A DNA stretch of 11,509 nucleotides from positions 1 through 11,509 of the IMG/VR virus record IMGVR_UViG_2663763232_000007; one strand, given 5' to 3'. The notes under the pieces are model-generated. The model saw only the letters and a program-made list of their open reading frames with translations. It was not told where the DNA came from and did not search any database. How positions within the stretch are numbered: position 1 is the first letter of the stretch; each line of letters begins with the position of its first letter. Below, piece after piece: positions 1-11,509 of this stretch. Source of the DNA: a virus. Lineage: Duplodnaviria; Heunggongvirae; Uroviricota; Caudoviricetes. The position numbers and the translations under genes are program-made.

Positions 1-46
1 AACAATTTGAAAACAAGAACCTCGCTTAGGCCTGTGTCCATATTAC

Positions 47-556
47 GTGGGTAGGATCACTGATCCTACATTGCGAAGTCAGTTTTTTCAGGAATTAATG
101 AATGGTCTACGCGGTTATGAGACTGATGACGTAACAAAAGTCGAATTAAATCGCAGTACTGATGCTAGTGAGGATGAAGACAAGGAAGAAACTATTGATA
201 CCGGATTTGTTAAGAAAGCCGTCCTTAATGGTGAAGGGGTAAATAGTTCAGCTATATTTTCTCAACTACATGAGAAAGGTTATTATATCGGGCGTATTGC
301 ATGGTCTTCAAAGCCGACAAGTGGAATTGGAGACAGAATCAACGTCGAAGCATTTTTCAAAGACTCAGAAAAATGCTGTGACTTTGCCTATCAAATTAAA
401 GGTATAAACAATCAAAAAGAAGACGGTTTCAATGTAACCATTCGCGCGGCAACGGCACAAGAGAAAAAACATATTAGTGAATTAATTGAGTCCGCCGCTG
501 AAAATGCCTATAATATAATAATAGGATCAGAGGTGAACGAAGATGAAAAAGGTTAA
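47..556 (+). CDS. Hypothetical protein, acidic (169 aa from GTG at 47; 152 aa if the ATG at 98 is used); accessory cargo of unknown function
   Basis: Long ORF in AT-rich DNA. GTG at 47 has no obvious SD but overlaps a TAG at 52..54 that closes an upstream open frame; ATG at 98 is preceded by AGGA. No motif I recognise. Confidence 0.5.
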   Translation: MGRITDPTLRSQFFQELMNGLRGYETDDVTKVELNRSTDASEDEDKEETIDTGFVKKAVLNGEGVNSSAIFSQLHEKGYYIGRIAWSSKPTSGIGDRINVEAFFKDSEKCCDFAYQIKGINNQKEDGFNVTIRAATAQEKKHISELIESAAENAYNIIIGSEVNEDEKG

Positions 557-1226
557 ATGGCTTAAGTTAAACATACGGCTTGAGTTTGAAACAGCCGTTA
601 GACGTCTTTCTCTTGATTCTTTTACAGAGGATAAAGGGAAAGGGTTCATTTTTGATAAAATACGCCATGATTTTGCAAATGGTCGCTTTGTCGAGCGTAT
701 TGTTTATCATGATAAAATATTAAGCTTTGACGGAAGCGAAACTACCGTTGAAAGAATCGAATATCGCACCACAAATTTTAGCGTGGCTTTAGACTCTCTT
801 CCTGTAATGCAGATTACCAACCCACCCAGAACTTTAAAGCCTTTTTCGCAGGCTTTGGTAAAAAATCTTGGCTTAGGTGTTAGTTTGGAAGAAATTGACA
901 TAAACCCTATAGACTGGCTTAATGAAATATCTTCAAGTGTAAATATCAATTTAACACAACTTGATATTTCAAGGGTTAGAGTTTCTGATTACGCCACAGC
1001 TAAAATGCAAATAATTGGCAGCAATGATCTTAGGAAGTATTATAAAGAAGAATTAGAGGGTAAAAAAATAAGAATTGACAGGCTTGTTTGCTCTGTTAAT
1101 TCATTAGAATATTCCGGTAAGCTCAAGATCACCAATAGCGGCCTTGCTTATATTGATGTTAGAAATGAGAATGAGTTTACGAAAATCGTTTTTGATACGT
1201 TAAAAAAAGTCACCCTTCAATCATAG
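543..1226 (+). CDS. Hypothetical protein, 227 aa; accessory cargo of unknown function
   Basis: ATG at 543 preceded by GAGGTGA; overlaps the upstream ORF by 14 nt, suggesting translational coupling. AT-rich; no motif I recognise. Confidence 0.6.
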   Translation: MKKVKWLKLNIRLEFETAVRRLSLDSFTEDKGKGFIFDKIRHDFANGRFVERIVYHDKILSFDGSETTVERIEYRTTNFSVALDSLPVMQITNPPRTLKPFSQALVKNLGLGVSLEEIDINPIDWLNEISSSVNINLTQLDISRVRVSDYATAKMQIIGSNDLRKYYKEELEGKKIRIDRLVCSVNSLEYSGKLKITNSGLAYIDVRNENEFTKIVFDTLKKVTLQS

Positions 1227-1282
1227 ATGGCTTATAAGGAGTTACTTCACCTAACGCCTCGCCTTACTCGTTGTTCAACCTC

Positions 1283-1313
1283 GTAGGCGTCAGAATCAAG
1301 TTCTGACGCCTAC
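1283..1313. terminator. Perfect 13-bp stem / 5-nt loop hairpin between convergent transcription units; candidate bidirectional terminator
   Basis: gtaggcgtcagaa-tcaag-ttctgacgcctac read directly; lies between the + strand cargo operon (stop 1226) and the - strand DinI-like gene (stop 1322). Followed on + strand by aatgtttcttaat, only a weak T tract. Confidence 0.45.
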
Positions 1314-1321
1314 AATGTTTC

Positions 1322-1555
1322 TTAATGCAGCCAGCTATCGTCCTCCCACACCTTCTGCATAATTTTCATCACTTGTTTTCTTTCTTCGTCCAGTTGCAGT
1401 CCGGTCAGTTCCACACCGTTAGAGCTACCTTTGCGGATACGAATTACCGTTTTGGGATACAGGGGGCGCAGATTGCGGTAAAGCTCGGATTCAAGGGCGT
1501 CCAGGGTAGACTGGCTAATTTTCTGCTCTTTATCGATCATTATTTCAATGCGCAT
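1322..1555 (-). CDS. DinI-like protein (77 aa), equivalent to the DinI-like part of a 186 Tum-type SOS antirepressor module
   Basis: Translation from the internal ATG reads MRIEIMIDKEQ...VWEDDSWLH, matching the length and the MRIE start of E. coli DinI as I recall it. GAGGTG SD 8 nt upstream. The track ORF 1322..1627 extends upstream in a frame overlapping the preceding gene. Confidence 0.7.
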   Translation of the reverse strand: MRIEIMIDKEQKISQSTLDALESELYRNLRPLYPKTVIRIRKGSSNGVELTGLQLDEERKQVMKIMQKVWEDDSWLH

Positions 1556-1565
1556 AAAAGTCACC

Positions 1566-1754
1566 TCAGCTGATGACATCCATTGAGCGGTTGTATTCGT
1601 GGCTTCTGATTTTTGCCATGAGTTCATCAGTCAATTCAGAAACCCACTGCAGAGCCAGCCCCTTCTCTTCATCACTACACTCACTAGCCGCTACAAGCTT
1701 AAGAAAAAAATCAATGCGCTGGAGCTTCAAAGACTCCAAAAAATAGTCCTGCAT
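1566..1754 (-). CDS. Small protein (62 aa), first gene of the LexA-controlled module; possibly the N-terminal partner of a split Tum-like antirepressor
   Basis: ATG start (MQDYFLESLK...) preceded by AGGAGG at 5 nt; stop lies 10 nt upstream of the DinI-like ATG. The track ORF 1566..1856 extends upstream across the promoter region. Confidence 0.5.
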   Translation of the reverse strand: MQDYFLESLKLQRIDFFLKLVAASECSDEEKGLALQWVSELTDELMAKIRSHEYNRSMDVIS

Positions 1755-1795
1755 TTTTCCTCCTATGACACCACAAGCAATACTGTACACATAAC

Positions 1796-1815
1796 CACTG
1801 TTTATATTTACAGTA
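1796..1815 (-). promoter_or_regulatory. LexA operator (SOS box) overlapping a candidate -10 of the promoter for the 1754..1322 module
   Basis: cactgtttatatttacagta = CTGT-N8-ACAG with an AT-rich spacer, close to the consensus taCTGTatatatatACAGta; about 45 nt upstream of the ATG at 1754. On the - strand, TTTACA and TATACT flank it as possible -35/-10. Confidence 0.6.
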
Positions 1816-1907
1816 TATAATAATCTTACTGATGTAAAACGTTTTTTTACGTTCATCAGCCTGATATGCCTGGTATTATTAAGAGCACGAATTGTTAACC
1901 CGCGTAA

Positions 1908-4322
1908 TTAATACAGATCCCGCCACTTATCATCTTCCTGCAAACGCTGGTTCCGATAGAAGATACGCAGGCCTGCTCCTGACGGAATACTGCCGCCGCG
2001 AAGGAGTAAATCGACCTCTTTCTCGCTGCCATCAAATCCTCTGGACTTCAGTTCATAGACGAGCTGCTGTCGTTGATGGTCTGTAATTCGCTGTTTGTAG
2101 TCTCTACGCCGTTTCGGTTTCACCAGGCGTAACCTTGCAGCCAGTTCCCGGCGTTCTTTTTTGTTCATACTGTGCAGGTAATCGTGCAACTCCTTGTCAT
2201 CCATACGGGTGATATCCGTTCTGGTATCCCCATCAGCTGATTTGTCTTTCCCTTGTTGGTACAAATTTTCAGCAAGGGGACAGTTATTGCCACGAGTCCA
2301 AGGGGCGCAAGCGCCCTGGTCGGCTGCCGCCTCCTGAACGTCAACGGCTTTACGAACCATTTTCCACTTCACTGCATGAGTGCAGATCTTGCCCTCTGCA
2401 ATGGGTGACCAGATGCCATAAATACGAATGCCGTGATCGCCATAGGCGGTCGGCTCTTCGTTGATTTCATAAGCGGTTCTGATGAGGTGATATTTACGGG
2501 GAACCAGTACGCCGCCCTGCTTCATGATGTAGGTGGCAAAACAACCAGCATCAGCAGCAGCCAGGATGGCATCAAGGCGCGGGTTATCCAGTACCGGCGC
2601 ACCTGCTTTTTTGTCCCCCTGTTGCCTTGCCGCCTGACCAGCCAGCAATCGCAGTTCACGGTAAGCCTGACGCCCCGGAATGCCAAAGAAGCGGAATTGC
2701 TGAACACGATGCAAAGACGCCCAGGCATTCACGTATTCAGCGTTATCACGCAGAGATTTACCCGTTTCCTTGCTGATCTCGCCAGCCAGACCACGCCCGT
2801 CAATGTTCTTACTGATGTATTTCGCTATGTAGCTTGTCGGCGTTCCTTTGCGCGGGTTAATCAGCTCAGACTTAAAGCGCGGCCCCGTGTTATTGCCCAG
2901 CTCCTCGCGGTCTTCACGGATAGCAAACTTACGCAACAATGCAGTAATGGCTCGGCGGTCTTTTTTGCGCATGAAACACAACAGGTGCCAGTGAACTGTG
3001 CCGTCGTGATGCGGCTCAGCCACCCGCACGCCATACCAGCGCAACCCGGCTTTGTGCATCGCCTTACGAAATGCAGCAAACATACCGACCAGATAATCGC
3101 TGCTTTGTCTTACCGTCGCATTTGTCCAGGTCGGGTTGGGCCTGCCGTTATTTAGCGTGGAATGGAAACGTGACGGACAGGTGATGGTGTAGAAAACGGC
3201 GCAGTCACCGCGCATTTCCGCGATAAGCTCCAGACCTTTAACACAGGCCATCATCTCATTGCGGCGATGCGCAGGGTTGCTGCTGCTGGCGTTTACCACA
3301 TCCTCCATGTCCAGCGTGTCGCCGTCTTCGTTCACCAGTTCATGAGAACGGAAAAACTCCAGCGACTTACGGCGCTGCTCACGTTTATGCAACACGGCTT
3401 CATAGCTGACATAGGGAGATGCTTTTTTGCTGACAAGGCAGACAGCACGCAACTGCTCTTCCCGCCATTCGCAACGCATCTTCCATAATTTCCGATACCA
3501 CCAGTCGGCGCACAACATACGCGCCAGCGAACCCGGAATGAGTTCATAGGGCACGGGTTTACGGCGGTTCCTTTTCCGACGGAGTTGCTCAAACGCAGGC
3601 GGGATGACATCCAGACGCAGGGTTTCTGCTGCCACCTTTTCCCATGTCTTGCGGATTTCTTCTGGCTTAACGTCATCGGTGGCATACAAATCGCCACAAG
3701 CTGCATCAAGGCACATGCTCATATGCGCAGCAACAAGGGTGGACAGGCGTTTCACCTGATCCTGACTCATTTCAGGCAGAATCAGCAGGCCGTCCAGCCC
3801 TTCATGGCTTGCCATAAAGCGAAAAGAAGTGGATAGCTGACTGTCGCGTACATGCTCCAGCCGTTCCAGACATGGCTTAATCGTCTCACGCAAATAGCGG
3901 GAATAAGCCTTTGGCCTGCCAAGGCTGCTGAAGTATTCAATACGTTGCATCAGCGGCTTGCTGATATGGGAGGGCTGGGCGCTGACGTCTGCCAGAATGA
4001 CCATGTCCGGGTTAAAACGCTGCTGCTCATGCGCCAACTTTGCCCGGCTAATGAGCTTATCCTGCTCCATTTCGCGCTGGACAGGATCACGGGATTCATT
4101 AAAGAAATAACGCTCCCAAACCTGATCACTCAGTGCCTCGCGGCGCAGTTGTTCCTGCTCGTTATCGGCAGCGTACAGAGTGATCAGGTTTGAAAGCGCA
4201 GAAACCGGCGCAACTTCCGCCGGGTCCAGATAAGGGTTAATGGCCTTTTTCGGGCTGTTCCATGAGAACGATGCGGCAGCTTCGTTAAAGCCGCAGCAGT
4301 TGTTCATATCGGCATGACTCAT
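1908..4322 (-). CDS. A: Rolling-circle replication initiation endonuclease, P2 gpA / 186 A family (804 aa)
   Basis: Contains VHWHLL (HUH-type metal-binding motif) and YIAKYISK (paired catalytic tyrosines three residues apart), as in P2 gpA-family initiators. ATG start overlaps the dam stop as ATGA. Confidence 0.9.
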
Positions 4323-5176
4323 GCACGTACTCCGTACACGGCAGAACTATCCACGCCACGCGAATAATCAAATCCCACCCAGCAGCGCGGCCCAGAAACA
4401 GCAATGATTTCTGTTGCTGATTTACCCTCGCCAGCTGCCACACCGATGCTGCGTTTTGCCTTGATGTAGTGGTGAGTAAAATTGCGATACAGCGAACGGA
4501 TCAGGGATGTGTCACTGTTAGAAACAATGACCGGATGTCCTTCTGATGACCGATGTTCAAGAACAGATGCCAGGTGATACTGGTCATCTTCAGTGAAGCC
4601 GTCAGTGTGATAGCCGGAAAACGTACCGTCATACGGCGGATCGCAATACACCACATCCCCCGCCTTCAACATCGCCAGCGTTTCATCAAAGCTGGCGCAG
4701 ATAAACGTTGCTCGCTGGGCCTTTTCTGCAAATGCGCGAATTTCTTTTTCAGGGAAATACGGATTTTTATAATTACCGTAGGGAATGTTGAAATGCCCGC
4801 TCTTGTTATAGCGACATAAACCACGGTAACCGTGACGATTGAGATACAGGAAATATACCGCTTTCATGAAATCAGTAATTTCAGTTGAGTAATTAAACTC
4901 CTGCCTTATGTTGTAATAAGCCACCTCCCTGTTTGCGATCTCAAATAAAACTCTGGCGCGAGATATAAACGATTCACAATCAGCGGCAACCTTTTTATAG
5001 AGGTTGATTAAATCAGGATTAATATCCGCAACCAGATAGCTGGGATAATCCGTCTCCATCATCACAGCACAGGAACCCGCGAAAGGTTCAACCAGTCGCG
5101 GGCCAGCAGGAAGATGTTTTTTCAGTTCGGACATTATGGCAGTTTTATTTCCCGCCCATTTCAGGATGGTGCTCAT
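4319..5176 (-). CDS. dam: DNA adenine methyltransferase, Dam/D12 class (N6-adenine)
   Basis: From the internal ATG the protein reads [11 protein letters not shown]..., with [10 protein letters not shown] (SAM-binding motif I-like) and VVYCDPPY (motif IV DPPY). The ATG overlaps the upstream stop as ATGA. The track ORF starts 20 codons earlier at a non-ATG codon. Confidence 0.85.
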
Positions 5177-5400
5177 ACAGCACCTCCGTTGTAATGTTTG
5201 CCTTTCAGCTCTGCGATTTCCTGACAGGTAATGCAAAGCTGCACACCCGGAATGGCACGGCGGCGTGCTGGCGGAATTGGCGCTTCACACTCAATGCAAA
5301 GTACGCGTGACACGCCCGGTGATTTGGCACGGGCTGCACGGATATGGCGCTGGCGTTCTTCTTCAACGCGCTGCTGTACGAGATCCATTGCATCAGCCAT
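5173..5400 (-). CDS. TraR/DksA-family C4 zinc-finger protein (75 aa)
   Basis: CIEC-(17 aa)-CITC spacing typical of the DksA/TraR zinc finger; AGGAG SD 8 nt before the ATG; start overlaps the upstream stop (TAATG). Confidence 0.75.
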   Translation of the reverse strand: MADAMDLVQQRVEEERQRHIRAARAKSPGVSRVLCIECEAPIPPARRRAIPGVQLCITCQEIAELKGKHYNGGAV

Positions 5401-5633
5401 TAGTGGATCTCCTGCGCTTCGTTCTGGATTGCTTCAGCAGTCACGCGCAGCAGTTCTGCCGCTTCCACGTGGTTTAGCTGGCGGGATGAGATATGACACG
5501 CCAGGCTATCAAGGCGAGCAGCCATTGCTTCAGCCCTTGCCCGGCGTTCTTCCAGACGAGCCTCTGTCAGTAAAATATTAAGCCCTGCGTCATCCGGTCC
5601 GGTTTTAGTCGTGAGGGTTTCAATATTACGCAT
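5400..5633 (-). CDS. Hypothetical early-operon protein (77 aa from the ATG; track ORF begins 2 codons earlier at TTG)
   Basis: ATG preceded by AGGAGA at 8 nt; sits in the early operon between the cII-side small ORFs and the zinc-finger gene; Arg/Ala/Glu-rich. No motif recognised. Confidence 0.5.
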   Translation of the reverse strand: MRNIETLTTKTGPDDAGLNILLTEARLEERRARAEAMAARLDSLACHISSRQLNHVEAAELLRVTAEAIQNEAQEIH

Positions 5634-5700
5634 AATCAATTCTCCTGAATTTAGATAAAGGGATGCCCGGCGGGTTTACGCCATTAATTTCATTAGTTGG

Positions 5701-6042
5701 TTAATTCGGCATGGTTAGCCGTCTGGGAAATAAGCTCACCACTGCACGAAAATGATTCATTGCTTTAATCAGCTCCCGCTTTTCGTCAGTGGTCAGCTCA
5801 TTAATGCTGATGCTATGACGTTCAGCTGGAATTTTTGCCATAAAGAATATGGCAGCCAGTGCCCGTTTATTTTGTTCATTATTGATATCCCGTGGATCAC
5901 GCATATCTTTAATAAACCGCTCAAGCTCTGACTCAATATTCAAACCAAAAACTTTCGCCCTTAACTCCGCAATATGATTAAGTCCATTCAGGCGTTCACC
6001 GGGTCTTAATGGAACAGTCGCCGCAGCGCCTTCAATAGCCAT
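5701..6042 (-). CDS. Hypothetical early-operon protein (113 aa)
   Basis: ATG preceded by GGGGGAA; position corresponds to the fil/dhr region of the 186 early operon, but I cannot match the sequence to either. Confidence 0.55.
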   Translation of the reverse strand: MAIEGAAATVPLRPGERLNGLNHIAELRAKVFGLNIESELERFIKDMRDPRDINNEQNKRALAAIFFMAKIPAERHSISINELTTDEKRELIKAMNHFRAVVSLFPRRLTMPN

Positions 6043-6206
6043 TTGTTCCCCCGTTTTTTCGTAGATAGTTCTGCCAGCAATTCATCTTGTGAACGGCACG
6101 GATGCCAGCGTTTACCATCCTCACCCATGATCCAGCCGTGACCGTAGTGCATTGCCGGACTTTGTTTTACCAGCAGCGATGCAAATGATGGTTCTTTCGT
6201 CAGCAT
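6006..6206 (-). CDS. Hypothetical small protein (66 aa from the ATG), immediately downstream of cII
   Basis: ATG preceded by GAGGTG that overlaps the cII stop; its 3' end overlaps the next ORF by 37 nt in another frame, so one of the two starts may be wrong. Confidence 0.4.
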   Translation of the reverse strand: MLTKEPSFASLLVKQSPAMHYGHGWIMGEDGKRWHPCRSQDELLAELSTKKRGNKWLLKALRRLFH

Positions 6207-6213
6207 AAGCACC

Positions 6214-6723
6214 TCACAGCAAACCGAATGAAGCACCGAGGCCAGTTACAGTATCAACTGCACTTGCCATCACAGGATTAACCTGTAAACGGGCCTGCAA
6301 TGAAACAGCAGCTAACGCCATCAGTCGTGTAACAGAGTTAATGCTGCTGATAGCATCACGACGACCTGCACTGGTTTTTACATCGCCAGATACCGCACCT
6401 GCAGCAACACGCCCGATCTCTGCGGTTGCACTCATGACGTAATGTGGCAGTTTCTCTTTTGCCACCTCATTAATCGGTACACATGGCAGGCAGTGAATCT
6501 GTGCCAGAAAACCGTCTACCAGCGTTGAATCTTCCGTCAGATCGGTAAGTAGCCAGATATCTGGCGCATTGAGCTGATGCGGTTGATCTGGGTTGAGTTT
6601 GTTTCGCAGAGTCTGGACATTCATTCCTGCACGTTCTGCCAGCTTCGCCATATTGTGGCGTAGTGCAAAAGCTCTACAGGCTTCATCAAAATGCGGATGT
6701 TTGGAAATCTTGTAATCAAACAT
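6214..6723 (-). CDS. cII: CII-type transcriptional activator of lysogeny (186 CII family, 169 aa)
   Basis: Same length as 186 CII as I recall it, same position after apl, and an N-terminal HTH-like segment ([19 protein letters not shown]). ATG preceded by AAGGGGG. Confidence 0.8.
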
Positions 6724-6755
6724 GCTGCCCCCTTAGAAAGTTCTCATAATTGAAC

Positions 6756-7004
6756 TTAGCCACCAACGATGACATTAAAATTGAAATTGGATTGGCCCAT
6801 GTTTTTCCTGACTTGTTCCTTTTTGTACTCAAGGTAACGTATACATACTCTGTCTTTCGGTTTTTCCTTTTTTTCCAAGAATTTAGCGAGCTTACCATTA
6901 TGAATCATTTGATATACCGAACCGCGAGAGCGGCCTTCCCATTCCGCGAACTCTGCAGGTGTCGCCATCACTTTTGGTACACGAATTGAAATGTCGTTGC
7001 TCAT
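6756..7004 (-). CDS. apl: Apl/Cox-family excisionase and lytic-promoter repressor (82 aa)
   Basis: First gene of the - strand early operon, divergent from cI; small basic protein with an HTH-like segment (ATPAEFAEWEGRSRGSVYQMIHNGKL); ATG start. Confidence 0.7.
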   Translation of the reverse strand: MSNDISIRVPKVMATPAEFAEWEGRSRGSVYQMIHNGKLAKFLEKKEKPKDRVCIRYLEYKKEQVRKNMGQSNFNFNVIVGG

Positions 7005-7123
7005 AGTGCAGTATCTCTCGATTAAGGTTTTGTTTATGTCGTTTTATCTTGTTTTATTAGATTCAATATTTGATACATCGAGATACTACGATCCAATATT
7101 TGATACGTCAATAGGATTAAGAA
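7005..7123. promoter_or_regulatory. Lysis/lysogeny switch region between apl and cI, carrying the early lytic and repressor promoters and operator repeats
   Basis: 119-bp AT-rich spacer between divergent apl and cI. Candidate lytic promoter on the - strand: -35 TTGACG (complement of 7106..7111), 17-nt spacer, -10 TAGTAT (complement of 7083..7088). I could not pin the + strand repressor promoter. Confidence 0.5.
7064..7107. repeat. Two direct copies of CAATATTTGATAC spaced 30 bp apart; candidate Apl or CI operator sites
   Basis: Copies at 7064..7076 and 7094..7106 read directly; the 30-bp spacing is about three helical turns; the second copy abuts the candidate -35. Confidence 0.45.
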
Positions 7124-7756
7124 ATGATACAGGTAAAAGCTGGCGAGAATACAGGGGGAAGAGAGGCTATCCATAGACTAATGGCAGCCTATGATTTCAA
7201 GTCCAGACAGCAACTTTGCGATCACTTAGGCGCATCAAAAAGCACTATGGCAAACAGATACTTAAGAGATAGCTTTCCCGCAGAGTGGGTGATTCAGTGC
7301 GCCTTGGAAACAGGAGTTTCTTTACTGTGGCTAACCACCGGACAAGGCGAGCCAGGTTCAAAAATTGACCCTAAAAAAAATATCAATTCTGTGAACTCCA
7401 GCAGGGTTAAACCTCTTTCTGAGCTTGTATCTCCTGAAATTGACAAGGCAACTCTCAACGGTGGTTTATTGGTCGATGCTGGAAAAGCAATCATTGATAG
7501 CAGCATACTCCCCTCAGACTCAAGCAACCTGCTGCTGGTGAGTACTTCTGGTGATTCTTATTTAATAGATCGCAACCAAACACCACCAGTAAATGGTACG
7601 TGGTTAGTGGACATCGACGGGATAAAAAGCATTGTAAAATTGACACGACTCCCGGGAAACAGATTAGTAGTGCATCAGGATGATTCATCGTTTGAGTGCG
7701 AACTGGATGACATTGAGGTAATAGGTCGCGCACTGAAAATTATTAAGAGCCTTTGA
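7124..7756 (+). CDS. cI: CI-type immunity repressor (210 aa from ATG 7124; 191 aa if the ATG at 7181 is used)
   Basis: N-terminal HTH ending in LLWLTTGQGEP, plus a C-terminal domain; divergent from apl; stop is 1 nt before the int ATG (TGAtATG). AGGA lies 7 nt before ATG 7124. 186 CI is about 192 aa by my recollection, so the start is uncertain. Confidence 0.75.
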   Translation: MIQVKAGENTGGREAIHRLMAAYDFKSRQQLCDHLGASKSTMANRYLRDSFPAEWVIQCALETGVSLLWLTTGQGEPGSKIDPKKNINSVNSSRVKPLSELVSPEIDKATLNGGLLVDAGKAIIDSSILPSDSSNLLLVSTSGDSYLIDRNQTPPVNGTWLVDIDGIKSIVKLTRLPGNRLVVHQDDSSFECELDDIEVIGRALKIIKSL

Positions 7757-7757
7757 T

Positions 7758-8783
7758 ATGACCATCAGAAAACAGCCGAACGGAAAGTGGTTATGTGAAT
7801 GCTACCCAAACGGAAGAGATGGCAAACGCGTACGCAAACAATTTGCGACGAAAGGCGAAGCCATTGCGTTTGAGAATTTCACCATGGATGAGGTAAACAA
7901 GAAACCTTGGCTGGGAGAAAAGGAAGATCGGCGACAACTGTCAGAAGTGATTGAGCAATGGTATTCCCTGTACGGTCAGACACTCGCTGACCCTAAGCGA
8001 TTAATGGCTAAGTTAAAAATCATTTGTAATGGACTTGGCGATCCCATCGCTTCTGAATTGACAGCAGGTGATTTCACAAAGTACCGGGAAGCCAGATTAA
8101 AAGGTGAGGTCAAAAACGAAGATGGCGTGCTCATGTCACCGGTTAAGCCCAGAACGGTGAACCTTGAACAGCGTAACCTATCCTCAGTTTTTGGCACACT
8201 GAAAAAGCTGGGGCATTGGTCTGCACCCAACCCCCTCGCCGGTCTGCCAACTTTCAAAATTGCAGAAGGTGAACTGGCGTTCCTTGCTGCTGATGAAATC
8301 AAACGCCTGCTTGACGCATGTGCTGAATCTCAAAGTCCCAGTCTGCTAATGATTGCCAAGATTTGCCTGGCTACCGGGGCAAGATGGAGCGAAGCCGAAA
8401 ACCTGCAAGGTAACCAGATATCAAAGTATCGAATTACCTATACCAAAACAAAAGGAAAGAAAAACCGAACTGTTCCTATTTCTCAGGAACTGTATGAAGA
8501 ATTACCCAAAAACAGAGGAAAGTTATTCACACCATGCCGAAAGGCTTTTGAGCGTGCGGTAAAACGAGCTGGAATTGAACTACCTGAAGGTCAATGTACC
8601 CACGTTCTGCGCCACACTTTCGCCAGTCACTTTATGATGAACGGCGGAAACATTTTGGTATTGAGGGATATTTTAGGACACGCTGATATTAAAATGACCA
8701 TGATTTATGCCCATTTTGCACCGGATCATCTGGAAGATGCCGTTACCAAAAATCCACTTCATAACCTCAACTGGCATCGCTAA
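7758..8783 (+). CDS. int: Tyrosine integrase, P2/186 family (341 aa)
   Basis: C-terminal catalytic region HVLRHTFASHF...LGHADIKMTMIYAHF (H-x-x-R and catalytic Tyr); size and position after cI match P2/186 Int; reads into the att site. Confidence 0.9.
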   Translation: MTIRKQPNGKWLCECYPNGRDGKRVRKQFATKGEAIAFENFTMDEVNKKPWLGEKEDRRQLSEVIEQWYSLYGQTLADPKRLMAKLKIICNGLGDPIASELTAGDFTKYREARLKGEVKNEDGVLMSPVKPRTVNLEQRNLSSVFGTLKKLGHWSAPNPLAGLPTFKIAEGELAFLAADEIKRLLDACAESQSPSLLMIAKICLATGARWSEAENLQGNQISKYRITYTKTKGKKNRTVPISQELYEELPKNRGKLFTPCRKAFERAVKRAGIELPEGQCTHVLRHTFASHFMMNGGNILVLRDILGHADIKMTMIYAHFAPDHLEDAVTKNPLHNLNWHR

Positions 8784-8788
8784 TAAAT

Positions 8789-8836
8789 GGCGGCACTTTG
8801 GCGGCAGAGCACTAAAAACAAGTAAAACAAGCAAAC
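8789..8836. repeat. Short direct repeats in the att arm (GGCGGCA x2; AAAACAAG x2), possible Int arm-type or host-factor sites
   Basis: GGCGGCA at 8789..8795 and 8800..8806; AAAACAAG at 8815..8822 and 8824..8831; AT-rich context between the int stop and the att core. Confidence 0.3.
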
Positions 8837-8900
8837 ACAGATTAACACTAACATCATGATTTAAAATGAAAAAATATGATTTCGTTAGTGTAAAAATGGT

Positions 8901-8944
8901 ATGTAGGAATTTCGGACGCGGGTTCAACTCCCGCCAGCCCACCA
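8901..8944 (+). ncRNA. ssrA: 3' terminal 44 nt of ssrA (tmRNA), T-arm and acceptor 3' strand ending in CCA; att core shared by the prophage and the downstream island. Not a complete tmRNA gene
   Basis: atgtaggaatttcggacgcgggttcaactcccgccagcccacca matches the 3' end of E. coli ssrA as I recall it (one position differs). Upstream sequence is the int 3' end and AT-rich arm, not the tmRNA body. Confidence 0.8.
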
Positions 8945-8991
8945 AAATTCTCCATCGGTGATTACCAGAGTCATCCGATGAAGTCCTAAGA

Positions 8992-9023
8992 GCCCGCACG
9001 GCGCAAGCCCTGCGGGCTTTTTT
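8992..9023 (+). terminator. Rho-independent terminator (ssrA terminator)
   Basis: gcccgca-cggcgcaagccc-tgcgggc followed by TTTTTT, 48 nt after the CCA end. Confidence 0.7.
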
Positions 9024-9078
9024 GTGCCCTCACTTTGTCCCGCGAAGTCCGAAGAGAACTAATTAAATCCGAACCTTT

Positions 9079-9128
9079 TAGGCCCATTGATAGGCCCAAC
9101 GAAAAGCTCTATTGTTTTCGTTGGGCCT
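9079..9128 (+). promoter_or_regulatory. Direct repeat TAGGCCCA x2 overlapping a perfect 14-bp stem / 9-nt loop hairpin in the intA upstream region
   Basis: TAGGCCCA at 9079..9086 and 9091..9098; stem aggcccaacgaaaa (9092..9105) pairs with ttttcgttgggcct (9115..9128); ends 20 nt before the intA ATG; no T tract follows. Confidence 0.35.
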
Positions 9129-9147
9129 AAACGCATGGAGACTCCCC

Positions 9148-10389
9148 ATGGCAAGAAAAACCAAGCCGTTAACCGATACGGAAATCAAAGCCGCCAAACC
9201 TAAAGATGCCGATTACCAGCTATATGATGGTGACGGGCTTACTCTGTTAATCAAGTCCAGTGGTAGTAAGCTCTGGCAATTCCGTTACTATCGACCTCTG
9301 ACAAAACAGCGAACCAAGCAAAGCTTCGGAGCCTACCCTGCTGTCTCCCTTTCTGATGCGCGTAAACTCAGAGCTGAATCTCGAGTTTTATTGGCGAAAG
9401 ACATTGATCCTCAGGAACATCAGAAAGAGCAGGTTAGAAATTCTCAAGAGGCTAAAACCAACACTTTCCTGTTAGTTGCCGAGCGTTGGTGGAATGTGAA
9501 GAAAGCCAGCGTAACAGAGGACTATGCCGATGATATCTGGCGCTCGCTTGAGAGAGATGTTTTCCCAGCAATCGGTGATATCAGTGTCACCGAGATTAAG
9601 GCTCATACTCTGGTTAAAGCAGTGCAGCCGGTTCAGGCCAGAGGTGCATTAGAGACTGTTCGCCGCCTTTGTCAGCGTATTAACGAAGTCATGATTTATG
9701 CTCAGAACACAGGCCTAATTGATGCTGTTCCCAGCGTTAACATCGGGAAAGCATTCGAGAAACCGCAGAAGAAAAACATGCCTAGTATCCGCCCGGATCA
9801 ACTTCCACAATTAATGCAGACTATGCGCACGGCAAGTATCAGCCTGTCCACACGATGCCTGTTCATGTGGCAACTTCTAACCATCACCCGCCCTGCCGAA
9901 GCTGCTGAGGCTCGATGGGATGAGATCGATTTCAATGCTAGCGAATGGAAAATTCCTGCAGCTCGAATGAAGATGAACCGGGACCATACGGTTCCACTAT
10001 CTGATGGGGCTCTTGCTATTCTGGAAATGATGAAGCCTCTCAGTGGTGGCCGAGAATTTATCTTTCCTAGCCGTATCAAGCCCAACCAACCAATGAATAG
10101 CCAAACAGTGAATGCAGCACTCAAGCGTGCTGGCTTAGGAGGTGTACTTGTTTCACACGGCTTGCGTTCTATCGCCAGTACGGCACTCAATGAGGAAGGA
10201 TTTCCACCTGATGTCATTGAAGCAGCGCTTGCTCATGTAGACAAAAATGAGGTGCGTCGCGCTTATAACCGCAGTGATTATCTTGAGCAACGTCGTCCGA
10301 TGATGCAATGGTGGGCTGATTTTGTAAAAGCAGCAGATAGCGGCAGTATCGTTAATAGTGGGGTTAGGGGAATACGGCTTGTGGGATGA
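9148..10389 (+). CDS. intA: Tyrosine integrase of the CP4-57 (IntA/SlpA, ssrA-targeting) type, 413 aa
   Basis: From ATG 9148 (GGAGA SD) the protein begins MARKTKPLTDTEIKAAKPKDADYQLYDGDGLTLLIK, matching CP4-57 IntA as I recall it; C-terminal HGLRS...RRAYNRSDY catalytic region. The track ORF starts 12 codons earlier at TTG. Confidence 0.85.
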   Translation: MARKTKPLTDTEIKAAKPKDADYQLYDGDGLTLLIKSSGSKLWQFRYYRPLTKQRTKQSFGAYPAVSLSDARKLRAESRVLLAKDIDPQEHQKEQVRNSQEAKTNTFLLVAERWWNVKKASVTEDYADDIWRSLERDVFPAIGDISVTEIKAHTLVKAVQPVQARGALETVRRLCQRINEVMIYAQNTGLIDAVPSVNIGKAFEKPQKKNMPSIRPDQLPQLMQTMRTASISLSTRCLFMWQLLTITRPAEAAEARWDEIDFNASEWKIPAARMKMNRDHTVPLSDGALAILEMMKPLSGGREFIFPSRIKPNQPMNSQTVNAALKRAGLGGVLVSHGLRSIASTALNEEGFPPDVIEAALAHVDKNEVRRAYNRSDYLEQRRPMMQWWADFVKAADSGSIVNSGVRGIRLVG

Positions 10390-10447
10390 ATCCTTTATCA
10401 GCACCCATAATGGGTGCTGATAATTCAACTATTAATAATACGGGCTT

Positions 10448-11326
10448 TTATCCTGTGACTTTCTTTTTTCTAGCAACTGTATTATCTAAAGCCAATTTGA
10501 TACTTTCAATATTTCTTGACCAGTTTTTAATAATGGTATCTTCCAAAGCATCTTGGCTCATTGTTGCGATACGATATTTTTTACTTTCATTATTAATGTC
10601 AAAATTTGACTCTTTAATAAAGTCCCACAAAGGATCAATGAGAGCATTTACCGCAGCTGCTTTACTTTTCCACCCACCTTCAGGAACAGATTCATTGATC
10701 AAATAAACAAGTTTATCTTGAATTACTCGATATACTTCCGCTTTACTGCTCCCACCTTGTTTTCCGGCTTTAGCTCTAACATGGGATAATTTTTTTTGAG
10801 CACATACAGAAACATGAAACCATGACATACCAATACATCTATCAAATAATTCAGAAGATTTAATGAATGCTTTAATAGCAACACACTCATTCTCTGACAT
10901 AACTGATTTTCCCCATTGATAAGACATCGAGGCAAAAAATAGATGTGATTTAAACACATCATTAATTAAAAAAGGATCCTGAATAAGATGAGAAAATGTT
11001 CCCCTGAAAATACGTGACTTTAACTCTTTCCAGCATTCCTGAACTGGATCATATAATTCAGCATATTCCTCTATTAATTGACCCACTCTGTCACCAGTAC
11101 AATATTTATACTCTTCATGAGATGGAGCACTATACAAAACCACACGTGTTCCTACCTTATCAGAATTCCAGAACTGATCTCGCATTTCGCTTAGTTCCTT
11201 CAGTATCGCAGGATAACTTTCGCTGAGCATATCAATGTATATGTCCCAATCACATTCGACCATCTGCCCAGAAAGACAAACCGATTTTTGACTAATTTCT
11301 TCGCAAAACTCAATCGCTGTCAACAT
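10448..11326 (-). CDS. Hypothetical protein (292 aa from the ATG), AT-rich orphan cargo gene next to intA
   Basis: Long ORF in roughly one-third G+C DNA, convergent with intA; ATG at 11326 (track ORF begins 6 codons earlier at TTG). No motif I recognise. Confidence 0.55.
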   Translation of the reverse strand: MLTAIEFCEEISQKSVCLSGQMVECDWDIYIDMLSESYPAILKELSEMRDQFWNSDKVGTRVVLYSAPSHEEYKYCTGDRVGQLIEEYAELYDPVQECWKELKSRIFRGTFSHLIQDPFLINDVFKSHLFFASMSYQWGKSVMSENECVAIKAFIKSSELFDRCIGMSWFHVSVCAQKKLSHVRAKAGKQGGSSKAEVYRVIQDKLVYLINESVPEGGWKSKAAAVNALIDPLWDFIKESNFDINNESKKYRIATMSQDALEDTIIKNWSRNIESIKLALDNTVARKKKVTG

Positions 11327-11509
11327 AAAAACACCAAATATCAATTAGTTAAGTGTTGTAAAAAATGTATTTTTGGTACGCGGATTTTTTGCATTAATGC
11401 TTGCCGCTAATCTTTCTACAACCAAAATGAACTAACGAGAGGCAATCAAGTGATCTTGACCCTCCATCTCCGAACAGCTTTTGTATCTTAAGTTAACGAT
11501 GTCCGCTGC

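Follow-up and report, generated by a model that had tools for sequence, protein, structure and literature searches.

An IS3-interrupted copy of the three-gene defence system Rst_3HP in a P2/186-like prophage and its likeness to GAPS4

Described systems closest to the locus

In P2-like prophages the segment between gpA and gpQ, the slot in which P2 carries old and tin, is a hotspot of defence genes (Rousset et al. 2022, PMC9122126). From this hotspot comes a three-gene system without predicted domains that protects against phage P1, which was the only one of the eight phages tested for which protection was reported (Rousset et al. 2022, PMC9122126). It is listed in Table S2A of that study as pFR109, "hp + hp + hp", with E. 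coli E1114 as the source, and pFR109 has no entry in the authors' HHpred table. In DefenseFinder the system is named Rst_3HP and noted as mostly prophage-borne, and in PADLOC its proteins are named Hp1, Hp2 and Hp3; we write 3HP for the system and hp1, hp2 and hp3 for the genes. A 2024 survey still listed Rst_3HP as unclassifiable.

Two further groups of described proteins are relevant to the comparison. GAPS4 consists of two genes, or of their fusion, that are sufficient for defence, and GAPS4a carries the motif HGxD...SxK (Mahata et al., bioRxiv). Its proteins assemble as a 2:2 complex, with GAPS4b as the ring and GAPS4a bound to a helical domain of GAPS4b; DNA breaks are sensed, host and phage DNA are both degraded, the infection is aborted, and the system carries a cost of autoimmunity (Mahata et al., bioRxiv 10.1101/2023.03.28.534373, 10.1101/2025.09.07.674715). 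RdgC forms ring dimers that encircle DNA, with the DNA in a basic pore, and inhibits RecA functions; the same fold gives the unequal heterodimer Iml3-Chl4, and RexA, also of the RdgC fold, biases the lambda switch. Neither of the two GAPS4 papers of Mahata et al. mentions 3HP or RdgC, and in our literature search we found no paper joining RdgC with 3HP or GAPS4, or 3HP with GAPS4. The link between 3HP and GAPS4 is so far implicit only, in Pfam and UniRef labels.

The locus and its interruption by IS3

The window analysed here is a stretch of 11,509 nucleotides (positions 1 to 11,509 of IMG/VR record IMGVR_UViG_2663763232_000007), which carries the prophage backbone genes DinI, gpA, Dam, CII, CI and Int. 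At its left end lie two open reading frames on the plus strand, ORF1 at 47..556 (169 aa, GTG start) and ORF2 at 543..1226 (227 aa), which share 14 nt, and the sequence GAGGTGA at 529..535 on the same strand reads as a Shine-Dalgarno site for ORF2, 7 nt before its ATG at 543. The first-pass annotation of this DNA had described both the overlap and the ribosome-binding site, and we find them as it described them. It had also called the block AT-rich, which is the case (36.3% G+C over 60-1226), but its figure of two-thirds G+C for gene A was overstated, the value being 53.3%. Additionally, the convergent arrangement that it saw between the block and the A/tum side is present, with a DinI-like gene (1322..1555), a 62-aa gene and gpA (1908..4322) all running on the minus strand towards the block. 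The DinI-like, tum-type gene is the first conserved backbone gene beside the slot (Pfam DinI, E = 1.2e-22), and the identical gene in the intact locus of E. coli 08-00022 (L001) is RefSeq-annotated. Between ORF2 and this gene, a terminator scan and RNA folding locate a G+C-rich hairpin with a 14-bp stem at 1283..1313 (-23.8 kcal/mol, z = -6.3, reached by 0 of 200 shuffles), which from its sequence is likely a two-way transcription terminator. The hairpin lies inside the fragment cloned in pFR109, whose reverse primer corresponds, on the opposite strand, to window positions 1314-1333. A search for a tRNA attachment site gave none, and the prophage instead abuts ssrA.

Upon comparison with the published system, we observe that ORF2 is 100% identical to pFR109 protein 3 over all 227 residues, and that residues 4-169 of ORF1 are identical to residues 194-359 of pFR109 protein 2. 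PADLOC, which had been proposed as a check on the locus, matched the known system, identifying ORF2 as a full Hp3 (PDLC03006, E = 2e-157, profile positions 1-227 of 227) and ORF1 as a fragment of Hp2 (E = 1.5e-114, profile positions 194-359 of 359 only), and PHROGs gave the same truncation for ORF1. The earlier statement that neither protein has a recognisable motif holds for Pfam and NCBIfam, in which both gave sub-threshold noise only, but not for these defence-specific and phage libraries, which identify both proteins. Furthermore, window positions 59-1320 align with the intact locus L001 with zero mismatches, and the WP accessions of the intact RefSeq locus recur in the P2 hotspot table of Rousset et al. 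(PMC9122126). On the strength of these sequence matches, the block that had been put forward as an undescribed system is a catalogued and experimentally validated one, already known and present in both DefenseFinder and PADLOC, and this copy of it is disrupted.

The placement of the block as variable antiviral cargo, acquired horizontally and occupying the equivalent of the old/tin slot, was by comparison well judged. The intact operon is flanked by the portal gene Q, together with a small divergent gene, on one side and by the DinI-like gene on the other, which is the hotspot as Rousset et al. define it, and the locus is present in just 18 of 5,426 complete E. coli genomes. A comparison of the slot among related prophages, which had also been suggested, reveals different contents, with a TIR gene in one prophage of near-identical backbone (L019) and no annotated gene in another (L020), so the block is cargo and not core. 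The right edge of this variable cargo falls at 1247..1251, where related prophages with different cargo begin to match the window.

The left end of the window belongs to a different element. Positions 1..59 on the plus strand, which hold the last transposase codons and a terminal inverted repeat ending in ...GGATCA at 59, are the right end of IS3, as identified by identity to annotated IS3 copies; window 1-62 is 100% identical to copies annotated as IS3 transposase in 3,584 of the 5,426 complete E. coli genomes, in which IS3 has a median of 3 and a maximum of 15 copies per genome. No more than these 59 bp of the element fall within the window, and its left junction lies outside. Frame 3 from the left edge reads QFENKNLA*, with its stop at 27-29, and represents the C-terminal end of the transposase of IS3, whose reading direction is that of the truncated hp2 and hp3. 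The suggestion that the operon has more sequence upstream is right; the open frame at the edge on which it had been based is that of the transposase. A copy in one of the E. coli genomes (L004) is consistent with these limits: its transposase CDS stops at the position that corresponds to window 29, and the element, which there splits lpfA, ends 1-2 bases past window 59.

Alignment with intact loci places the junction between IS3 and hp2 at window 59/60, directly after ...GGATCA. The 5' end of ORF1 at 47..58 on the plus strand is an artefact, as the terminal repeat of IS3 supplies its GTG and the two codons that follow, no Shine-Dalgarno sequence precedes it, and the match to hp2 begins only at codon 195 of 359, so that ORF1 as annotated is not a gene. 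What remains is a 3' fragment of hp2 at 59..556 on the plus strand (codons ~195-359 of 359, from alignment to L001 and from PADLOC Hp2), followed by hp3 at 543..1226 on the plus strand, which is intact and encodes the third Rst_3HP component. In place of a coupled two-gene operon, the prophage backbone is thus adjoined by the end of a three-gene operon that IS3 interrupts, 1.46 genes in all, made up of the C-terminal 46% of hp2 and the whole of hp3. Rst_3HP comprises a full-length Hp2 with Hp1 adjacent to it; the window encodes only residues 194-359 of the 359 of Hp2, and hp1 is absent from it. According to the layout of the AlphaFold model, the fragment is without the helical domain at the N-terminus (GAPS4b_N) and, of the RdgC-like fold, without the first half.

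At best, hp1 and the 5' half of hp2 lie beyond IS3, outside the window. The IS3::hp2 junction was not found in the 5,426 complete E. coli genomes, in IMG/VR or in JGI metagenomes, and the sequence to the left of the window is therefore not recoverable; the contig end itself may just be the IS3 repeat. A match in H40 that appeared to link IS3 with a related prophage was a coincidence, the H40 copy of IS3 sitting past the integrase. Overall, we consider it highly probable that window 59-1226 is the 3' portion of Rst_3HP, carried as P2/186-like cargo between gpA/DinI and cos/gpQ, with IS3 inserted in hp2 at approximately codon 195; the identity with Rst_3HP and the disruption by IS3, taken by themselves, are near-certain.

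The intact operon, its candidate mechanism and the copy in this strain

The intact operon encodes proteins of 333, 359 and 227 aa and occurs both in genomes of E. coli and in P2-like phages of Klebsiella. PADLOC on the intact locus identifies Hp1 (E = 1.1e-239) and Hp2 (E = 2.7e-248), with hp1 directly upstream of hp2. To examine the linkage of the three genes, we collected 81 loci, among which 76 had enough downstream sequence to be tested, and hp1, hp2 and hp3 were contiguous and in that order in 76 of these 76, across many phyla. Among the linked loci hp3 lies mostly outside prophages, and the relatives of Hp3 amount to 703 clusters of standalone proteins of ~225 aa.

Upon examining the individual proteins, we find that Hp1 appears to be related to the nuclease component of GAPS4. 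The precomputed family PF26115 (PDDEXK_GAPS4) is assigned to 120 of 120 homologues among the matches listed (185 found), one UniRef name among the homologues states PDDEXK_GAPS4 explicitly, and a Pfam scan with a model set lacking PF26115 and PF26110 gave no match for Hp1. In all of 82 sequences compared, the most distant at 37% identity, H47, P48, D50, D69, L70 and K71 do not vary, and the resulting motif HPxD...DLK reads as a PD-(D/E)xK site that coincides in position with the Asp essential to GAPS4a. The GAPS4 proteins were compared through the NCBIfam GapS4a and GapS4b models. With the former, 9 of 21 members of the Hp1 family match (best E = 1.2e-10), E. coli Hp1 itself not matching at E <= 1; with the latter (NF047934), Hp2 matches over residues 14-314 (E = 2e-5), its score being 23.5 bits where the curated cutoff is 300, and just 2 of 37 Hp2 homologues give any match. 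Hp2 additionally carries PF26110 (GAPS4b_N), as a weak match.

The AlphaFold model of Hp2 has a helical N-terminal domain (residues ~10-68) followed by an RdgC-like body, and the break at codon ~195 falls in the linker between its two structural halves. Hp3 is basic (pI 9.0), and in their predicted structures Hp2 and Hp3 both present themselves as RdgC-fold proteins, at 9-10% identity in the structural alignment. No match to the RdgC family was obtained for the Hp proteins in Pfam or NCBIfam scans, nor any match at E <= 10 in PDB sequence searches with Hp1 and Hp3 as queries. A paralogy of Hp2 and Hp3 at the sequence level was considered and rejected, the hhalign probability being 0.3%. The two ends of the operon differ markedly in conservation, with 69 positions at least 90% conserved in Hp1 and only 2 in Hp3, for which the median identity is 18%.

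The mechanism that we propose for intact 3HP combines these observations with what is described for GAPS4. Hp1 would be, from its motif and family, a PD-(D/E)xK DNase of the GAPS4a type. Hp2 is modelled as a distant GapS4b homologue, in which an N-terminal helical domain would dock Hp1 and would be followed by an RdgC-like, DNA-encircling fold, and Hp3, a second basic and fast-evolving protein with the predicted RdgC fold, probably serves to complete the DNA-binding ring or to regulate it. On the model of GAPS4, the complex may sense broken or linear DNA during infection and respond with non-selective DNA degradation, whereby the infection would be aborted. We give roughly even chances to the general form of this proposal, in which DNA damage or DNA ends, perceived by a two-protein sensor of the RdgC type, would set off a GAPS4-like nuclease in 3HP.

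Insertions have disrupted the operon in other strains as well. One locus (L016) holds two IS1 copies within hp1, each with a target duplication; another (L013) has an IS5-family element in place of hp1 and the first ~77 codons of hp2; and in a third (L014) hp1 and hp2 are split by two indels, which may be sequencing error. The repeated IS knockouts hint at a fitness cost of the operon, as reported for GAPS4. A more specific version of the proposal, which is tentative and to which we give somewhat under even chances, is that 3HP is a three-component offshoot of GAPS4 in which Hp2, docking Hp1, and the small Hp3, unrelated to it in sequence, would form an RdgC-fold ring resembling the unequal pair Iml3-Chl4. 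The whole would keep watch for DNA breaks or DNA ends at a cost to the host, and this cost would explain the repeated knockouts by IS elements (IS3 in the window, IS1 and IS5-family in other strains).

The trigger could also be of another kind, in that Hp3 or Hp2 recognises a phage protein or an intermediate of replication or recombination, P1 circularisation for example, and then licenses Hp1. The narrowness of the reported protection, against P1 only among eight phages and thus narrower than that of GAPS4, is in favour of this possibility, as is the very fast evolution of Hp3 set against that of Hp1. Fast evolution is common in components that contact phage factors; a weakly constrained scaffold could evolve fast too, however, and a sensor of the state of DNA is favoured by the homologies, of Hp1 with GapS4a and of Hp2 with GapS4b, as well as by the DNA-ring fold predicted for Hp2 and Hp3. 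We judge a phage-specific trigger to be possible but unlikely.

With regard to the copy in the window, we consider it most likely to be inactive, the loss of function being deduced from the split gene, and the protection against P1 seen with the intact pFR109 clone is expected to be lost. Hp3, as a basic and putatively DNA-binding protein of the predicted RdgC fold, could nevertheless act alone as a remnant, expressed by read-through from IS3 or from an internal promoter, and modulate RecA/SOS or prophage induction beside DinI/tum without the nuclease. The gene is intact and has a strong ribosome-binding site, its neighbour is DinI-like, and the effects of RdgC on RecA and of RexA on the lambda switch would offer models for such a role. 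A promoter scan also returned a promoter-like site, TTGAGT-17-TATAAT, at 486-514 upstream of hp3; however, the scan counted 6 such sites where shuffled sequence gives 5.0 +/- 2.1, and because they are not enriched we claim no internal promoter for hp3. Furthermore, the occurrence of hp3 with hp1 and hp2 in every testable locus, mostly outside prophages, speaks for a role of Hp3 solely as part of the three-protein system, and we regard a function of Hp3 by itself as improbable.

Also conceivable is that 3HP is still functional in this strain, either because the IS3 junction is an artefact of assembly or because both halves of hp2 are expressed and complement each other. The window ends in a repeat, of the kind at which short-read assemblies often break or mis-join, the break coincides with the linker between the halves of the Hp2 model, and read-through transcription from the codirectional IS3 transposase can be imagined. 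Against this, the junction is base-perfect at the exact terminus of IS3, as is typical when an element has truly transposed and untypical of a chimeric join, and the independent IS1 and IS5-family knockouts in other strains make disruption by an IS plausible. Additionally, the GTG at 47 has no Shine-Dalgarno sequence, and we know of no precedent for split RdgC-fold proteins. We find a functional system in this strain very improbable. Lastly, an intact and undescribed two-gene defence or lysogenic-conversion operon starting from the GTG at 47, for which the overlapping frames, the good ribosome-binding site of ORF2 and the missing Pfam and NCBIfam matches could speak, is hardly tenable, since the start of its first frame is IS3 terminal repeat and the frame covers no more than the C-terminal 46% of the 359 aa of Hp2, and since the system is published, validated and in both PADLOC and DefenseFinder.

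Comparison with known systems

The immediate consequence of reading the locus as an IS3-disrupted Rst_3HP is that a false lead is removed, the apparent undescribed system being a catalogued and validated one that IS3 has broken, and a clone of the two ORFs being a truncated fragment of it. The wider value is modest and consists in a candidate mechanism for a validated system that reviews list without recognisable domains; this mechanistic proposal is the sole part of some wider value. Our analysis shows strict linkage of the three genes across many phyla, and the IS knockouts hint at a cost of the kind known from GAPS4.

Relative to the Rst_3HP of pFR109, the window copy lies in the same gpA-gpQ slot of a P2-like prophage, is followed by the same hairpin and the same DinI neighbour, and reaches the end of the cloned fragment at window 1333. 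It differs in that its hp2 is interrupted by IS3 at codon ~195, whereas the validated clone is intact, and in that what remains does not adjoin hp1 and the 5' half of hp2.

Relative to GAPS4, the likeness lies in the Pfam family PDDEXK_GAPS4, to which the listed homologues of Hp1 are assigned, in an apparent PD-(D/E)xK site near the N-terminus of Hp1 that takes the place of the Asp essential to GAPS4a, and in Hp2, which carries GAPS4b_N and aligns over nearly its full length with NCBIfam GapS4b; the Hp2 model, with its helical domain and predicted ring-type fold, appears to agree with the published description of GAPS4b. The differences are that 3HP has three genes and not two, Hp3 being without a described GAPS4 counterpart; that Hp1 has HPxD...DLK where GAPS4a has HGxD...SxK; that the Hp2 score is far under the NCBIfam cutoff; and that the reported range of 3HP, P1 only, is narrower than that of GAPS4. 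Judged by its motif, its number of genes and the NCBIfam thresholds, 3HP is best described as a sister clade of GAPS4 and not as a member proper.

Relative to RdgC of E. coli (PDB 2OWL), the resemblance of Hp2 and Hp3 comes with a sequence identity of 9-10% only and with no RdgC family match in Pfam scans, and RdgC is a housekeeping homodimer that modulates RecA and is not found in a nuclease operon. A ring of Hp2 and Hp3 around DNA is suggested by their predicted fold and by the ring of GAPS4b. Finally, RexA of lambda, which acts in RexAB exclusion, has as its partner the membrane protein RexB and not a nuclease, and its structural similarity to Hp3 is far weaker than that of RdgC.

Linkage, conservation and carriers of the 3HP operon

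We found that the gene order hp1-hp2-hp3 is kept, with the three genes contiguous, in 76 of the 76 testable loci among comparison loci L021-L100 and L006, as in L006 at 5001-7761. These loci range over Proteobacteria, Cyanobacteria, Verrucomicrobia, Clostridia, Caldiserica and others, many of them do not lie within prophages, and the V. fluvialis copy is adjoined by a serine recombinase. When positions conserved at 90% or more were counted, we observed a steep fall from Hp1 (69 positions) to Hp2 (22) and Hp3 (2).

A second allele of the entire operon, with 86% DNA identity, occupies the same cargo slot in five complete E. coli genomes (H61-H65; for example NZ_OZ547176, 1479564-1482433), and a 96% identical copy is found in Klebsiella phages of the ST437-OXA245phi4.1 group. 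Two complete 3HP loci (H51 and H52; NZ_CP148585 and NZ_CP148400) are on 55-kb records classed as plasmids, and in comparison locus L017 (2673-3599) a ParA-type gene stands beside the cargo slot; together, these observations are consistent with 3HP being carried as cargo on P2-like phage-plasmids.

The ssrA insertion site and the adjoining island

The prophage integrase gene (7758-8783) is directly followed by a 3' fragment of ssrA, the tmRNA gene (8700-8944; Rfam RF00023, 34.7 bits, which is under the gathering score), and this arrangement in the sequence places the insertion point of the 186-like prophage at the 3' end of ssrA. A scan of the window with ARAGORN detected neither a tRNA nor a tmRNA. 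Beyond the fragment, 9112-10389 encodes another integrase, which is of the intA/P4 type and has an Arm-DNA-binding domain, and next after it comes an AT-rich ORF of 298 aa (10448-11344, minus strand; 33-36% G+C), for which Pfam, PADLOC and NCBIfam all gave no match. The segment 9112-11344 matches, at 100% identity, the ssrA-intA island that many E. coli genomes carry and in which the ORF is labelled hypothetical; in L020, a related genome whose prophage slot has no annotated gene, a NACHT-domain gene is located farther along this island.

Minor features of the window

The Apl/Cox position, flanked by CII and CI, is occupied by an 82-aa ORF (6756-7004, minus strand) without a Pfam match and with no more than a weak PADLOC match, to mad1 (E = 0.0015), which probably reflects generic helix-turn-helix similarity. 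The hp2 remnant contains a promoter-like site, TTGAGT-17-TATAAT (486-514; 10/12 matches), shortly before the start of hp3; since such sites are not commoner in the window than in shuffled sequence, it provides no evidence for an internal promoter.

Repeated disruption of 3HP in E. coli

Disrupted 3HP operons were observed at three E. coli loci. In L016 (CP024275, 2380-4935) hp1 holds two IS1 copies, each with a target duplication; in L013 (LT883142, 4118-6014) an IS5-family element has taken the place of hp1 together with the initial ~77 codons of hp2; and in L014 (3934-6014) two indels, which may be sequencing errors, split both hp1 and hp2. These are independent events in different strains and, together with the IS3 insertion in the window, they suggest that 3HP is costly to carry, similar to the cost reported for the two-gene defence system GAPS4.
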